Positions 4,283-20,934 of a DNA stretch of 64,000 nucleotides are shown one piece after another; position 1 is the first letter of the stretch, and each line of letters starts with the position of its first letter. Below the pieces are notes generated by a model that ran no database searches, was not told the DNA's origin, and was given only the letters and a program-made list of their open reading frames with translations. Source of the DNA: a virus (Duplodnaviria; Caudoviricetes); the IMG/VR virus record IMGVR_UViG_3300023100_000003, positions 30,755-94,754 of that record; one strand, 5' to 3'. Position numbers and translations under genes: made by a program.

Positions 4283-5384
4283 TTAGCTTATACTAAATGT
4301 TTTTAATGCTTTCATTATCTCTGTATATGACTGAGTAGAGGGTGGATACCTTTTCTTCAATTCACATTCAGTTGCAAACAATGTAATCTCTTCGTCTTCT
4401 GATGGAAGCCCTATATCATAATTATGAGCTTTAATAGGGCCATGATCATAGATACTACCATTGTAACTGGTTTTACAATTAATGGGTAATACATCCTCAA
4501 TGGTATACACTCCATTAAACTGAGGATGAGTTAAACTAGTGAATGTTACTTCTTCTCCAATACTGTACTTAGGATTACTCATACTACCCTCCATCACATT
4601 TAACAGGGATTACAACGTCATCACAATAATTATCATCGTATACTTTGTATACAGTATATGCTAACAAGAAAACCACAATTGTTATACAACAGACGGATTG
4701 TTTATATTTCATTTCTGTAGTTCTTCCATCATCCACTTAAACTCTTTGTATTCTTTTAGTAGAGCATCATAATCTTGTGCAGAAACCCAATCACCTCTAA
4801 CAACTGTAGTTTCAAACATCTCCTTACCATCATTCCAGATACCATAGTAATCATTAAATGTTTCATACCGTTTTACATTCTCAAAATCTTGCATATTTAT
4901 TCTCCAAAATATTGCCATAGCACAGCATTACAAACACTATGTACAGCACCAATTGTTAAGCCAGTATTATGGCAATGATGTAAGTGTACAGGATACTTAA
5001 AGAAAGAGCTAGGGAATAATGATTCTTTTATTTTAAACTTAAGTACTTTATCGCTTGGATCAAGGTTAAGTGAATTACCACAATGAGAACATTTACCATT
5101 CTGTATTCTTATGTACTCTTCTCTAACCAAACGTCTTTCTGGTTGAGTTAGTCTGTTATAATCTACTGGTAGTTTCATAGTGAGCTAAACACCTGAGCAA
5201 GCTCTACTTCATACTTAGCTTTTTTATTAGTCATAGGATCAAATCCATCAGTAACATTAAGACCAACCACTATCCACTGCTTACCAAAAGCTTCATATAC
5301 CTTATGTCTATATCCATCGCAATACTCTACGTATTCGTCTTGGGTGATGCTAAATTTTATTTGATTCATCTTACTTAACCTCAA
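4283..5384 (-). other. Cluster of small hypothetical CDS (4283-4597, 4709-4894, 5175-5369) flanking the EndoVII gene
   Basis: Tightly packed co-directional ORFs. Confidence 0.6.
4897..5178 (-). CDS. Endonuclease VII-like (His-Me finger) nuclease
   Basis: QNGKCSHCG...LHHCHNTGLTIGAVHSVCNAVL matches the EndoVII pattern DH.H.TG.VRG.LC..CN. Confidence 0.75.
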   Translation of the reverse strand: MKLPVDYNRLTQPERRLVREEYIRIQNGKCSHCGNSLNLDPSDKVLKFKIKESLFPSSFFKYPVHLHHCHNTGLTIGAVHSVCNAVLWQYFGE

Positions 5385-6666
5385 TTACACAATTATGGCT
5401 ACTACCCAACACTTGTTCAAAACATCCTCTCATAACTTCTATCCCCTCATCTTTAAATCGTTCTTTAACAATTATACTATCATGCACAGGAATGATAACT
5501 TCTCCAATACTGTTGAAATGGCCTATCACTAGATCCATTATTTTACTATCAATATTCTGTAATAGCAATCCCTTAGGTTCATGGAACCATAATCTAATGT
5601 AATCATTCCGTTCTACGATAGCTTCAATGATTGCAGTATAGTCTATAAACTTAGGACATTTACCTTCTTCTACGAGTTTAGGTACAACCCCCTCTACGAA
5701 CATCATGTTAGCTAGATTTCTCCTTGACTCCCACCAACTAGCTACCCCTTTTGGATCAACACTAATACCACTATTCAAGAGTATTAAAGATGCAAACTTA
5801 CCAAAGTATCTGCATGTACGATCTTCATAATTAGGCAAAGTAATTGCATAGGGGTCAAAATCAACATCAAGTTCAATTCCATCTAAGGTAGCTGCTATTC
5901 TGGGGTGTAATGACTTGAAGTCAATCTCTACAGTTGGTTCTCCATCTATCCTAATCTTAGGTCTAATACCACGTTCCATAATCTTAGCTCCATCACCTAT
6001 AACAAAACTTCGCCCACCTTGCTCAAATGATGAGTTATTGTAAACTTTCTTTAGTTGAATATCATAACACTCTTCCCCGACTTCTATCATACTACTTCTA
6101 GTCATCTTGTTATACTTGTTTAGCATTTGAACTACTTCTTTCTGATAAAAGGGTAGAGGTGTTACTACTGGCTTCTTGTCAGAGTTTCTTATTTCCAAGA
6201 CTGAAGGTATTGTAGGTATCCTACTCTTGTAACAAATAGTCTTAAGATGTTCGTACAACTCTTCACTTAGCCTCATACTGGAGCTTATTGTCTTATCTGG
6301 AACTAATATACCACCCTTCATTACCCAAGAGCCTATACACCCTACAGTTAGATTACCTCTACCTGAGTAGTGCAACCAATCGAAAACACTTCTAGAGAAT
6401 GTGTAGGATACTTTACGGTTAACTTTAGTTCCATTATAGATCAAAGGTAAGCTGTAAGTCTCTTTATGTAAAACTACAGGAACTTCATCTCTACCAAAAG
6501 ATACTTGATACATTGCATTATATACAAAACAAGCAACAGCTTGGTATATCTTTGTTTTCTTGCTTTCTGTAAGCTTCAGTATTACTTGTTGGCCATACTC
6601 TTCTATGTATTCGTTATACAGATTTTCTACAGTGGTAGTAAGGTATTTAGGAACCTTATAATCCAT
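5371..6666 (-). CDS. Family-A/T7-RNAP-related polymerase without exonuclease domain (TV-Pol-like)
   Basis: QGGRSF, motif A IDGEPTVEIDFKSLHPRI, O-helix-like RYFGKFASLILLN, LQNIDSKIM, motif C IPVHDSIIV; likely start MDYK at 6666. Confidence 0.75.
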   Translation of the reverse strand: MDYKVPKYLTTTVENLYNEYIEEYGQQVILKLTESKKTKIYQAVACFVYNAMYQVSFGRDEVPVVLHKETYSLPLIYNGTKVNRKVSYTFSRSVFDWLHYSGRGNLTVGCIGSWVMKGGILVPDKTISSSMRLSEELYEHLKTICYKSRIPTIPSVLEIRNSDKKPVVTPLPFYQKEVVQMLNKYNKMTRSSMIEVGEECYDIQLKKVYNNSSFEQGGRSFVIGDGAKIMERGIRPKIRIDGEPTVEIDFKSLHPRIAATLDGIELDVDFDPYAITLPNYEDRTCRYFGKFASLILLNSGISVDPKGVASWWESRRNLANMMFVEGVVPKLVEEGKCPKFIDYTAIIEAIVERNDYIRLWFHEPKGLLLQNIDSKIMDLVIGHFNSIGEVIIPVHDSIIVKERFKDEGIEVMRGCFEQVLGSSHNCVIEVK

Positions 6667-6907
6667 TAGATAAATACTAATAATACATCTCCATACTACT
6701 ACTCCTTCATTAGTGAACAAAAAGTTAATAAAATAGCTCTCTAACCCAAGCACAGCAAGGGTTTCAGGGTTAAAAAGAGGTTAAATAAATCCCTCTACAT
6801 AAGTACTACTATACACCTCTTTTTCTAGAATACTAGCCCCTCCTATAGATTTGTTTGTTATTTAAACCGATGAAGTTATAACCCAAATATCAACTACCTC
6901 TATTTCC

Positions 6908-16092: not shown

Positions 16093-18901
16093 GCAGCATA
16101 TATAACTTTGTAGTAGAACTACAAGATCTTTGTAATAAATATGAATTAGAACTTAAAGCAGACAGAGAAGAAAATATTGGTATTTATCCTCAAGATAAAC
16201 CTATGGTGTTGGGTACTCAAACCTACACTTGGGGTAAAACTATTTATGTTGATATTGTAAAAATGGATGATGCAGATGAGTAATTTTAAACCACAATGGT
16301 TCTCAGACGATAGTATTATTGAACAAAACATAGTTCCTATTATCAATAAAGAAGGGAATGAAGACTTTGGTGTGTCACTTACAGTGACGACAGGGTATGC
16401 TTGTGTAGAAGTAGTGTTAGACTATAATGAGCTTAGGAATATAATGAAATATTTTGATGATGTAGCTTTTGATCAGTATGAGGAAGATGTTTATGAGTGA
16501 TTTTGAGGGTGCTGTAGCCATTAGTAAAGAAGTGGCTAGTGTTGCTATGGAGAAGTATAAAGAAGCTTACACACAGTCTGAAGAGGCTTTAAATGCTATC
16601 ATAGAAGAACAGCAAGGAATAAAGAAAAGAGTATTCTCTCACTGGCGCTGGTTAGTTCCTATAGATAAGTGGACTTTAGCTGTTCGAAAGCATGTCGGCA
16701 GTTGGTACTTCAGTTACCATCATGTAGCATTGTCTGAATTTGGTTTAGCTTACGAAGATTATAAAATATTAGACAGCTTAAGTGTTTCTCTTGATATTCG
16801 ATCTATGTTAGATATATCTTGTGGAGATAAATTATTATTTAGTCTTGAACAAGCTAAGTTTATAGAAGAATGGAGTAATAAATGAGTGAAATAAACTTCG
16901 GTAAATATAATGACTTCTTTGTTGAGGATAAAGTTGACCCATCTGGAGACTTGGAGATAGGAATACCAGAACATCAATCTGAATACGTAGTTCACAGTTG
17001 GCTTAATAAGGTATCAGCTTTGGAGTTGATTATTCACTTAAATAAAGTATTTGATTTAGGGATAAAAATAGATGAGTGATATACCCAAATGTATATGCCC
17101 TGTTAACACTCCAGAGCTGTATTATCACTTTCCAAAGTGTCCTTACAAAGTTTACATGATTGCAATTAAGAAAGAGGATAAAGAATAAATGATTGAAGAA
17201 CTAATACAACGAATAGAAAAGCTTGAAGCTCAAGTATCTCTTTTGAATGGAATGAGTAGTGTGATTGATAAATCTGGACCTAACCATTTGATGCAGGGAA
17301 CTACAACATCTCCTAGTTTAGGGTATAACTCAGAGTTAACAGGTAGTAATTTTAGAAATGTAGATTTCAATGAAAAGTTAAGAGCTGCTGCTGAAGCGTT
17401 TAGAGATAACTATCGATTGGATTGTGTAGGGAGTGATAGTGGAATAGGTAAAGCTAATATTGAAACTAAGGAGAATAAATAATGGTAGACACATATGGTA
17501 TTATGATGGAGAAAGACAATTGGGGAGATTGGGTTCAGAAGACTGACTATGAAGCTCTAGAACATGAAAATGATACTCTTCAGAAGAGAATAGAGGAACT
17601 TGAAGAAACTATAGAAGATCTCTTTGAAAGGTTACAAGAATATGAATAATCCACAACGTGTAGTATGTGCTGCAAACAGAAACTCAAAAGGTCTAATAAT
17701 TTGTGGGGCTAGACATTGGGATGATATTATGTGTACTGTAGTAGATGCATTAAGTGTCAGTGACTTAGACTGGGAACAAGGGTTTATCGATAATTATGGT
17801 AAATTCTTAACCAGAGAAGAAGCTAGTGTCATAGCTGTGGAACAGGACCAGTTGAAGGGTTATTATAAAGATTGCCCTACTGGATATTTATTTAGTGAAC
17901 ATTTGTATTAGGAGATAAAGTGACTAGAACCAACTGTAGACGTACACGTTATAGACGTAGTGTAAGACAGATGAGTCTACTAGACGGAGCTTTCTTCCGT
18001 AAGGTAGACTTCAAATATGATGGGCAAAAGGTTTACAAGCTTCAATACACTAGTAAGTGGAAAATAAGAGATACTCATTATAGAGATGGGTTAAAGTGGC
18101 AAACAGCTAAAAGAATTGGAAGGTGATATGAATAAAGAAATATTAGAGCGTATAGAAATTATTCAAGAGGTTTACCCTAACACAGTTATGAACACCATAT
18201 ACCAAGCAGTGTGTGCCCACCTGTATGATTATACAGATGATAAATTCACAGAAATATCTGATGAAGAACTATTGGCTTGTTTAAAAGCTGAAATACATAC
18301 AATAATGAATGGGTGAGATATGACTAGTCTATGTAAACACCCAGACAAGAACCATAAGCTATGCTCAGGAGGGTGTGAGAAGGAATGTCAACGTATGAAA
18401 AGAGAACCTATCTTGTGGGGAACTATCCTAAAGGATAAGAAAGATATTAAAGTAACATTTGGAAAGAAGGAGATAAAGAGTGACTAAGAAACAACTATTA
18501 AAAAGAATAAGGGATATAACATACAAACATTTCCATGATTCAGATGGGATAGAAAAACTACTCAGAAAGAATCCTGAGTTGGGCATACCCAAAGACTGTA
18601 TGGTATTTCTAGACTCAGTCAAGATTGCAGAAGAAGTGTACAGTTTATTTAAGAAACAGGTAAGTGAGGAAGGGAAGTGAGTAAATATTTAAGTAGAGAA
18701 ACAAGAAACAAACTAAAAGAAAGATTTGATATATCTAGAGCTGGCTATGTATACACATCCCCAACAACTGGTAAAGAAATTGTTGTAAGGGCAGAAGACC
18801 TACATGATCTACATGATTTTCTAGTATTCACCTCAACCAAAGAATACCATGAATGGGTTAAAATGAAACTAATGGATCTCAGTAATGACAGACTTCGATG
18901 A
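16089..18901 (+). other. Run of small hypothetical CDS
   Basis: Abutting or overlapping ORFs with GGAG RBS, including an unannotated 55-aa ORF at 17482-17649. Confidence 0.65.
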
Positions 18902-19583
18902 ACTCCCAGAAGAGATAGTACAAGCCCACATAGATGGGTTAGAGTACCACATGAAGCAGGGATTGATATCACGTAAACAACTAGAATATATTAACTCTGT
19001 ATCTAAACGTAAGCTTAATGAGTTACTGTCAGAAGACAATACCAAAGAGTACTTAAACAAGGAACAAGGCAGTAAAGCCTATACCAAGATCTTAGAGACA
19101 GGGATAACAGCACAGGAAGCATTAGAGTATGTAGCTGAGTATTATGGTAAAGACATAGAGTGGGTAGAAGAGGTAAAGAACAACAACTACATCCATGCTA
19201 AACAAGTATTCATAGACCATCAAGAACATGATGTACAGAAGGCTATGAAGCAAGATGGTACACTACGTCCTAAAGCTTTAAAGACAAGCAAAACACCTAA
19301 TAGTCAACTCAGGGAGCTACATGCTCAGCGTAAGCTGCATAGCACTTTGAATGACTTGAAGAGTACCACTACAAATCTATCTACAGAAGTAGAAGATTTA
19401 CAAGCTAAATCTGTTATCACTGATTCTAATGTAGATTTGGTAATGAACATACTAGATGTAGACCAACTCTCTCTGAAAGAGAAGGCCAGTAAGCTCAAAG
19501 CTCATGGCTTTACTCAGACCAAAATATCTACCTACTTAGGAGTTACTACACGTACCCTAAAGAGATGGTGGAAAGATATCTAA
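18885..19583 (+). CDS. Coiled-coil protein with C-terminal helix-turn-helix
   Basis: LKEKASKLKAHGFTQTKISTYLGVTTRTLKRWW. Confidence 0.7.
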   Translation: MTDFDELPEEIVQAHIDGLEYHMKQGLISRKQLEYINSVSKRKLNELLSEDNTKEYLNKEQGSKAYTKILETGITAQEALEYVAEYYGKDIEWVEEVKNNNYIHAKQVFIDHQEHDVQKAMKQDGTLRPKALKTSKTPNSQLRELHAQRKLHSTLNDLKSTTTNLSTEVEDLQAKSVITDSNVDLVMNILDVDQLSLKEKASKLKAHGFTQTKISTYLGVTTRTLKRWWKDI

Positions 19584-19991
19584 TTAAGAATTATTCTTAT
19601 ATGTCCCCTTTTTGTCACCTTCATTGGTGACTTTTCTCTTCTTTATAAAGGAAAATTTATATTTCCTGCTAATCCCTTTCCCCATATTTTATAATCCCCC
19701 TATAAAAACACACCTTAGTATTATGTATCTATGAAATATCTGTAGGTAGGAATATCTTATAACGGAGTTATAGACAGTAATTAGTACAGCAAATACACCC
19801 CCTTGGGATACCAAGATAACGAGACTTGGTGCTTATGTTACGTAATTCTAATACTATCAATATCTTAAGTCCGTGAGGACTAGTGTTTAACAAGGTCCCC
19901 CACCGACCTATTGTTCTCTCCGAGCTTATTGAAATATCTACCACATCTCACAATCATTGTCAATAGTATAATCGATAATAAATAACTATTC

Positions 19992-20542
19992 TACAGCGTA
20001 GCTGTAATAGGATATGACTATCATCACTGTAAGTGATACATAAGTACATATAAGAGTAGTAGAGAGATAAATAAACAATAAAGAATGATAAGATGATAGA
20101 GATAAGAGATATACATTATATACGTGTTCCATGTCATAAGCTATGCTTATGTGCGTGTTCACAGTCTACGACTGTTTCACGTGGAACAATAGACTGTGAT
20201 AGAGTATTAATAGTATAGCTTACGCTATAGGGTGAGTGTTGTTGGTTTAACAACCAAGGGATGAATAGATATAACCATAGGGTGTATGTACGCTATCGCA
20301 TAAAATTGTACTATTCTTAGCAGTAATACTATCTATAGCGTAGCTATAATAAGTTATTGATTACTAAAGTAATAATGTATATTCGTAGCTACGCTACATA
20401 TAGGTGCTATCTTGTGTTTACACACAACATGTAGTGCTATTATTGATTAGTTTATTTATGTATTTCCTTACAATAATCAATGGATATAATAAATGTTATA
20501 AGCATAGCTTATGATAGATGTTAATAGTCTAAGCTACGCTTA
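19992..20542. repeat. Array of eight mini-hairpins with C-GTA-G / C-GTAA-G / C-ATA-G loops
   Basis: Inverted repeats at 19992-20006, 20135-20151, 20161-20175, 20214-20229, 20334-20348, 20385-20397, 20498-20512, 20530-20542. Confidence 0.85.
20173..20188. promoter_or_regulatory. parS: parS (ParB/Spo0J binding site)
   Basis: TGTTTCACGTGGAACA, an exact fit to the widespread chromosomal consensus TGTTNCACGTGNAACA. Confidence 0.8.
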
Positions 20543-20550
20543 AATAAAGC

Positions 20551-20579
20551 TTGCACTAAGGTACAGATAAGACTAATAT
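20551..20579 (+). promoter_or_regulatory. Early sigma70-like promoter
   Basis: TTGCAC-N17-TAATAT. Confidence 0.65.
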
Positions 20580-20934
20580 AAGTACATACAAGAGACAAAC
20601 AACAAACAAAGGCAAAGCAAATGAAAAGGTTCTTAGTGTATGCCATCATCATTGGAACAATAGGAAATGTTATGTTGTCTAGTGCATCAAACTCTACTGT
20701 AATGAACTCCACAGCTGTTAAACTCTCTCAATTAGGTGAATAAGATGAACGACATTAAATACATTGAAATACAGTTTTTAGTTAAGGTTAACAAACCTAA
20801 GATTAAAATTACTTTGGTTAATCTTATGAGTCGTGATGATGCACTCTTTATTGCTGATCAGGTTAAGTTAGATAAATCAGTATTTAGTGTTACCTGTTGG
20901 ACTGAAAAGAATACTTTTATCTAGTAAATAGTTG

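Follow-up and report, generated by a model that had tools for sequence, protein, structure and literature searches.

The 16-mer TGTTTCACGTGGAACA, which lies in the largest non-coding block of a lytic-looking phage genome, is kept by selection as judged from its conservation among relatives, and it probably serves as a nucleation site for the chromosomal ParB protein of the host. The genome studied, G000, is an IMG/VR record of 94,754 bp that is rated 100% complete by CheckV; the window, i.e., the whole stretch of 64,000 nucleotides analysed here, comprises its bases 30755-94754. The 16-mer occupies positions 20173-20188 of the window, and its reverse complement TGTTCCACGTGAAACA is an exact match, on the reverse strand, to the chromosomal parS consensus TGTTNCACGTGAAACA (PMC7022226), as the original prediction of a canonical parS at this place had stated. 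The question of additional sites elsewhere in the genome was answered in the negative, since this is the sole parS with up to one mismatch in the entire record. The single-copy state was established for G000 alone, most relatives being partial contigs. Half-sites of parS were not enriched in G000 (19 observed versus 19.5 expected).

The gene content of G000 resembles that of a virulent Barba-like myovirus. The left 37 kb form a leftward (minus-strand) arm, at the head of which a 460-aa protein of PHROG 4756 (function unassigned) is encoded at 5371-6753 on the minus strand, and the next 54 kb carry rightward early and middle genes. The latter encode PhoH, an HslV-like peptidase, dCMP deaminase, primase/helicase, DNA polymerase, an exonuclease, a phosphoesterase, a MazG-like enzyme, thymidylate synthase, ribonucleotide reductase and several HNH endonucleases. 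Nucleotide metabolism also includes a dNMP-kinase-like gene, and the endolysin is a single-domain Hydrolase_2 protein of 171 aa. The genes examined, with only part of the small ORFs among them, cover replication, nucleotide metabolism, lysis and homing endonucleases. The DNA polymerase is 66% identical to the enzyme of the Rheinheimera Barba phages. Both Barba and Alteromonas phage PT11-V22 are myoviruses, and the annotated features of the stretches inspected in them include no lysogeny gene. Six-frame searches of the G000 genome gave no match at E ≤ 1 to Phage_integrase, the search for integrases covering the tyrosine type only. Likewise, no match at E ≤ 1 to ParB_N, HTH_ParB, CbiA or AAA_31 was obtained in six frames, so that the absence of ParB claimed for the window extends to the whole 94.7-kb genome and neither parA nor parB is found in its remainder.

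The parS site is located, as originally described, in the main non-coding block (19584..20620, with an alternative end at 20735), the longest ORF-free stretch of the genome. Directly upstream of this block lies a plus-strand gene for a 232-aa helix-turn-helix (HTH) protein (18885..19583), which was used as the synteny anchor, and the first small gene after the block (20621..20743, plus strand, 40 aa) is conserved in the relatives L151 and L157/L158. The 5' part of the block contains a terminator-like hairpin followed by repeated (G/A)AAATATC motifs, and the 3' part contains about 15 short hairpins within 600 bp, parS and two further 16-bp palindromes. The (G/A)AAATATC(T) motif, present at 19732-19741 and 19930-19939 in G000, is common to 8 of 10 blocks (L151, L156, L157, L159, L163, L164, L167 and G001 are listed) and may be an iteron or a promoter element specific to the phage. 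The two palindromes, TTGGTTTAACAACCAA and TTGTGTTTACACACAA, are situated at 20242-20257 and 20412-20427. Relatives share a related motif, GTG..TTAACAC, some 40-60 bp past the parS position; it is conserved even in the distant G001, as TTGGTTTAACACACCAA (L028 14120-14145).

The short hairpins form an array at 19992-20545; their stems of 5-7 bp covary, their C-GTA-G (or ATA/GTAA) loops are conserved, and both orientations occur. Hairpins of the same type occur in relatives with and without parS, for example TATAGC-GTA-GCTATA and GTTAGC-GTA-GCTAAC in L151 and TATAGC-TAC-GCTAT in L164. The array is probably an origin or regulatory element; hairpin promoters serve some phage single-subunit RNA polymerases. 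Mimicry of a bacterial oriC, with DnaA boxes beside parS, was considered and rejected, as no DnaA box with up to one mismatch was found in the G000 block; the distant relative G001 has three DnaA boxes. A coding role of the parS region was rejected as well, since the small ORFs across the site are not conserved between lineages.

Relatives were gathered by way of homologues of the HTH protein and then the contigs encoding them. Public assemblies yielded 33 homologues, with identities of 49-74%. The only cultured homologue of the gene just upstream of the block is that of phage PT11-V22, and a megablast search of the locus against cultured phages gave no match. In viral contigs, a locus search returned nothing with the HTH protein as a single query and only L162 with an HTH alignment; elsewhere it gave one 1.2-kb metagenome contig ending before the block, and nothing in bacterial genomes. 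The ORF-free block downstream of the HTH gene is syntenic in all relatives, and the distant relative G001 (99.6 kb) has the same layout, with the HTH gene followed by an ORF-free block of 1.5 kb. In the parS-positive relative L165, a protein of the Gad1 family (PF25705), a family of anti-Gabija counter-defence, is encoded at positions 1-936, several kilobases before the HTH gene.

Conservation of the site was assessed in 11 lineages including G000, each with about 1 kb or more of sequence downstream of the HTH gene. A parS with up to one mismatch was found at a matching distance past the HTH stop codon in 5 of the 11 (4 of the 10 besides G000). The site is TGTTTCACGTGGAACA at +590 bp in G000, TGTTTCACGTGGAACG at +475 bp in L156, AGTTCCACGTGGAACA at +474 bp in L163, and TGTTCCACGTGAAACA at +548 bp in L164/L165 and at +575 bp in L195. 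The original prediction had proposed conservation at this locus as a check, and the outcome is in its favour. The proteins adjoining these syntenic sites are only 52-62% identical between lineages, and the non-coding flanks are essentially unalignable. Between the ~1-kb blocks of G000 and L156, parS is the sole blastn match, and L164 and L195 share only a 29-nt match spanning parS and a 23-nt match near the block start.

These data bear directly on the possibility that the site arose by chance, or that it is a scrap of host DNA carried along without a function. The expectation for an exact 16-mer is 3.4e-4 per genome at the base composition of G000, and single matches of this kind do arise when many windows are scanned, so that the one site in G000, taken by itself, could still be a look-elsewhere match in a large scan. 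A site with one mismatch in PT11-V22 (L176, NC_048847.1 8468-8483, TGTTGCAAGTGCAACA) looks like such a case; it was judged to be due to chance because it lies inside the tail-sheath gene and its mismatch falls in the CACGTG core. For G000, the look-elsewhere explanation is excluded by the syntenic retention of parS in four more lineages. A site with up to one mismatch is expected by chance ~2e-4 times in a 1.2-kb block, so that the chance of four more matches in ten blocks is ~3e-13. Moreover, the five lineages keep the site at the same place within diverged flanks, 16 bp alone are shared with no host-like flank, and the same letters in reversed order are at least 60-fold rarer in viral contigs. 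Chance and passenger DNA are effectively refuted by the conservation result, and we regard them as very improbable.

The substitutions among the lineages are confined to positions 5 and 12 and the two outermost bases, and the resulting variants coincide with natural chromosomal sites of Myxococcus (TGTTCCACGTGGAACG) and S. pneumoniae (AGTTTCACGTGAAACT) (PMC7022226, table 1). By sequence, the phage variants fall within natural chromosomal parS variation of the type tolerated by ParB. In two lineages parS has the opposite orientation, a change that a symmetric dimeric reader tolerates.

In the tree of the HTH protein, lineages with parS are spread over all major branches, the most divergent one (L195) among them, and each of these lineages has sisters without parS. 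No parS-like site with up to three mismatches was present in the contigs L151, L157/158, L159/160/162, L167, L193/194 and L170/171, only 1 kb of the last being covered by the search. The absence of sites with up to two mismatches from G001, and of sites with up to one mismatch from Rheinheimera phage Barba19A, was established too. Since 6 of the 11 lineages, G001 and Barba19A do without it, parS is dispensable. A ATTAATAGT motif lies just downstream of parS in G000, L156 and L195; together with the spread over the tree and the constant position, this favours ancestral presence of parS in the group followed by repeated loss. The close relatives L164 and L167, whose flanks align at ~75-80% identity, differ by a segment of ~45-60 bp, which contains parS in L164 and unrelated sequence in L167, so that parS behaves here as a small accessory cassette. 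Such presence and absence in close relatives suggests a host- or condition-dependent accessory trait rather than a core replication element.

Since the site is a palindrome in a regulatory or origin-like block and lies directly downstream of an HTH gene, it could also be the operator of a phage-encoded dimeric DNA-binding protein, its identity to parS being convergent or incidental. The further 16-bp palindromes of the block, TTGGTTTAACAACCAA and TTGTGTTTACACACAA, are in line with this possibility. However, ParB_N and HTH_ParB were missing from the six-frame searches, and the adjoining HTH protein does not resemble ParB. It is all-helical with a C-terminal HTH and a weak HTH_23 match, and a fold search of its AlphaFold model (pLDDT 81) against the PDB gave no match at E ≤ 0.001, ParB-like or other. 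The HTH gene, moreover, occurs equally in parS-positive and parS-negative relatives, and none of the genes in the flanks co-occurs with parS. Finally, chromosomal parS is constrained at the same 14 positions and tolerates the same variants. An operator of this kind is therefore unlikely, and the same observations, i.e., no ParB-like gene, an HTH gene shared with parS-negative phages, no co-occurring flanking gene and constrained positions that are exactly those of chromosomal parS, make recognition by host ParB the best reading.

The hairpin-rich surroundings raise another possibility, namely that the 16-mer is a structural element (hairpin or cruciform) of the origin-like array and its likeness to parS a by-product. 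About 15 short hairpins share the same 600 bp, and the L156 sequence can also be read as a mini-hairpin, CACGT-GGA-ACGTG. In G000, parS is bracketed by a fully complementary 10-nt inverted repeat (TCACAGTCTA at 20159-20168 and TAGACTGTGA at 20190-20199) and its first 3 nt are overlapped by the mini-hairpin ACAGTC-TAC-GACTGT at 20161-20175, a member of the C-GTA-G array; both features had been described in the original prediction and are real. Neither was found in the relatives, and the single-strand DNA fold at parS (-8.2 kcal/mol, z -1.9) is only marginally better than that of shuffled sequences. The proposal that extrusion of the hairpin would disrupt one arm of parS is thus not supported. 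In addition, the stems of the array covary freely between copies and between phages, whereas the 16-mer is sequence-invariant across lineages, and a loop-less 8+8 palindrome makes a poor hairpin. Together with the weak local fold and the unconserved nesting repeat, these properties render a purely structural role still less probable than an operator.

Co-option of host ParB, as put forward in the original prediction, stands as the best reading of the sequence, the site being conserved and the phage having no ParAB of its own; what the phage would gain from it is speculation. Counting against this reading are the dispensability of the site, the half-sites that are not enriched, and the other palindromes and the hairpin array of the block, the array being probably read by some phage protein. 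The ParB specificity of the G000 host is an assumption. Base modification of the phage DNA, if present (the phage has nucleotide-metabolism genes), might alter recognition by ParB.

The nearest cultured relatives infect Rheinheimera and Alteromonas, which are non-sporulating Gammaproteobacteria, and among the gamma-proteobacteria the par genes are reported missing in Enterobacteriaceae and Pasteurellaceae only (PMC7022226). A spore-forming host is unlikely, judging from these relatives and from the 171-aa single-domain Hydrolase_2 endolysin. Scanning bacterial genomes with the DNA polymerase gave a hit of 60% identity on a 5-kb contig binned in a Flavobacterium metagenome-assembled genome (MAG) from Lake Mendota. 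The binning was distrusted, because Shine-Dalgarno motifs precede 57% of the rightward ORFs of G000 compared with a background of 10%, which is unlike Bacteroidota. The MAG itself (G007) has three clustered parS sites, one of them the identical 16-mer. A class-level scan centred on G006, in which ~1-Mb genomes were sampled and which serves as a positive control for the pattern only, detected the parS pattern in 113 of 201 bacterial genomes of one class, with 0 control matches.

The original prediction had held such a site to be undescribed for a virulent phage. This is not borne out, as the virulent Bacillus phages phi29 and Nf carry host-type parS sites according to the part of PMC2731898 that cites Meijer et al. 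2005. By the same account, the five sites of phi29 are bound by the host protein Spo0J and help to move the genome into the prespore, i.e., the segregation machinery of the host moves the phage genome while lytic growth is on hold. G000 resembles phi29 in being a virulent-looking phage with a chromosomal-type parS and neither ParB nor ParA of its own. The two differ in that phi29, a protein-primed podovirus of 19 kb, infects a spore-former and has five sites that act in prespore entrapment together with Spo0A boxes, whereas G000 is a 95-kb Barba-like phage with one site, at a fixed place within a hairpin-rich block. We found no literature on orphan host-type parS sites in large or Gram-negative virulent phages.

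Among other elements, a close parallel is SGI1, whose parS mimics bind the ParB of the IncC helper plasmid, stabilise SGI1 and destabilise the plasmid (PMC10954446). Like G000, it is a parasitic element that carries a cis site alone, the rest of the partition system belonging to another replicon, and its amplified copies titrate ParB and thereby destabilise the owner replicon. SGI1 is, however, an island that targets a plasmid ParB by means of two sites and the helper protein Sci, and its mechanism was demonstrated experimentally; the parS of G000, an uncultured phage, is of the chromosomal type. Chromosomal parS sites include the same 16-bp sequence, within their range of natural variants, but cluster near oriC beside parAB, whereas the G000 site is on a virus without par genes. 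One site nucleates ParB, and one chromosomal parS together with the par operon stabilises plasmids (PMC7022226).

Partition as an episome is also known from temperate phages. P1 (parABS) and N15 (sopAB) encode their own ParA and ParB and have their own, non-chromosomal centromeres, so that their DNA is segregated by a ParABS-type system. No match to such ParA and ParB genes at E ≤ 1 exists anywhere in G000.

Among viral contigs at large, at least 119 carry the exact 16-mer, compared with 2 for the same letters reversed, an over-representation of at least 60-fold. Among the matches listed, ParB_N is encoded by 2 of the 39 carrier contigs of at least 15 kb; of the 17 carriers that are at least 90% complete, again among the matches listed, 16 lack ParB_N and 14 lack a tyrosine integrase. 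This excess in complete viral genomes without ParB suggests that the strategy is common and under-appreciated.

Several carriers have distinct arrangements of sites. G232 (IMGVR_UViG_3300035565_000044, L074), a 100.5-kb record with direct terminal repeats that is rated 100% complete and has no ParB_N and no integrase, contains six dispersed sites with up to one mismatch, at 2962, 26540, 34372, 38782, 71090 and 75638. G238 (L085, 116.7 kb) has 24 sites in two clusters and G218 (L050, 169 kb) has 13, mostly near the record ends. Both encode a tyrosine integrase, and no ParB_N match reached the threshold; these records may represent phages whose arrays of host-type parS are very large, or else elements that resemble plasmids or islands. 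A further set of contigs of ~11 kb (one of 6.7 kb), mostly from metagenome 3300045988 (L067, L088, L099, L089, L038, L053, L075 and L107), carries pairs of exact parS sites ~42 bp apart near the contig end. L067, L088 and L099 have parS at both ends in inverted orientation, as does L089 with single sites, and these contigs resemble small linear elements whose terminal inverted repeats carry parS. L061, a parS-bearing contig with distant tail-gene similarity to G000, has its site at a non-homologous place.

If host ParB does read the site, purifying selection would keep the 16-mer in a lineage that lacks ParB and ParA of its own. During infection, ParB-CTP dimers of the host would close on parS and slide onto the adjoining phage DNA, and the phage genome would become a client of the host ParABS system (and of SMC where present). 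Whenever lytic growth is stalled, as in a slow-growing or starved host, the phage DNA could then be positioned by, or carried along with, the host nucleoid, and as phage copies multiply, ParB would unavoidably be titrated from the host origin. SMC loading, local silencing or a shielding of the phage DNA may be further consequences. A benefit of partition for a fast-lysing phage is not obvious. Positioning or carriage is favoured by the precedents of phi29, SGI1 and the stabilisation of plasmids by a single parS; carriage during stalled growth, with ParB titration as a second effect, is nevertheless a speculative proposal, to which we give rather low credence.

Host-type parS on a virulent phage was already known from phi29 and Nf. 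What is new here is its occurrence in a large Barba-like lineage, its fixed syntenic position by an origin-like hairpin block, and its cassette-like gain or loss between close relatives. The pairs L164 and L167, and G000 and L151, offer natural cases of presence and absence for comparison.

More broadly, it is conceivable, though doubtful at present, that the borrowing of host ParB through an orphan parS is a widespread strategy of lytic phages that is independent of sporulation. The site would tether or partition the genome in stalled infections, i.e., the carrier state or pseudolysogeny in starved hosts of this aquatic Barba-like group, would strip ParB from the host origin once the phage DNA is amplified, and would be acquired and lost as a ~50-bp cassette according to the ParB specificity of each host. 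If host ParB does load on the G000 site, a 16-bp cis element would suffice to plug a virulent phage into the chromosome segregation of its host, and the spore-entrapment paradigm of phi29 would extend to large phages whose aquatic hosts probably do not sporulate. Carrier states and pseudolysogeny, which matter ecologically but are obscure in mechanism, would also become accessible at the molecular level.
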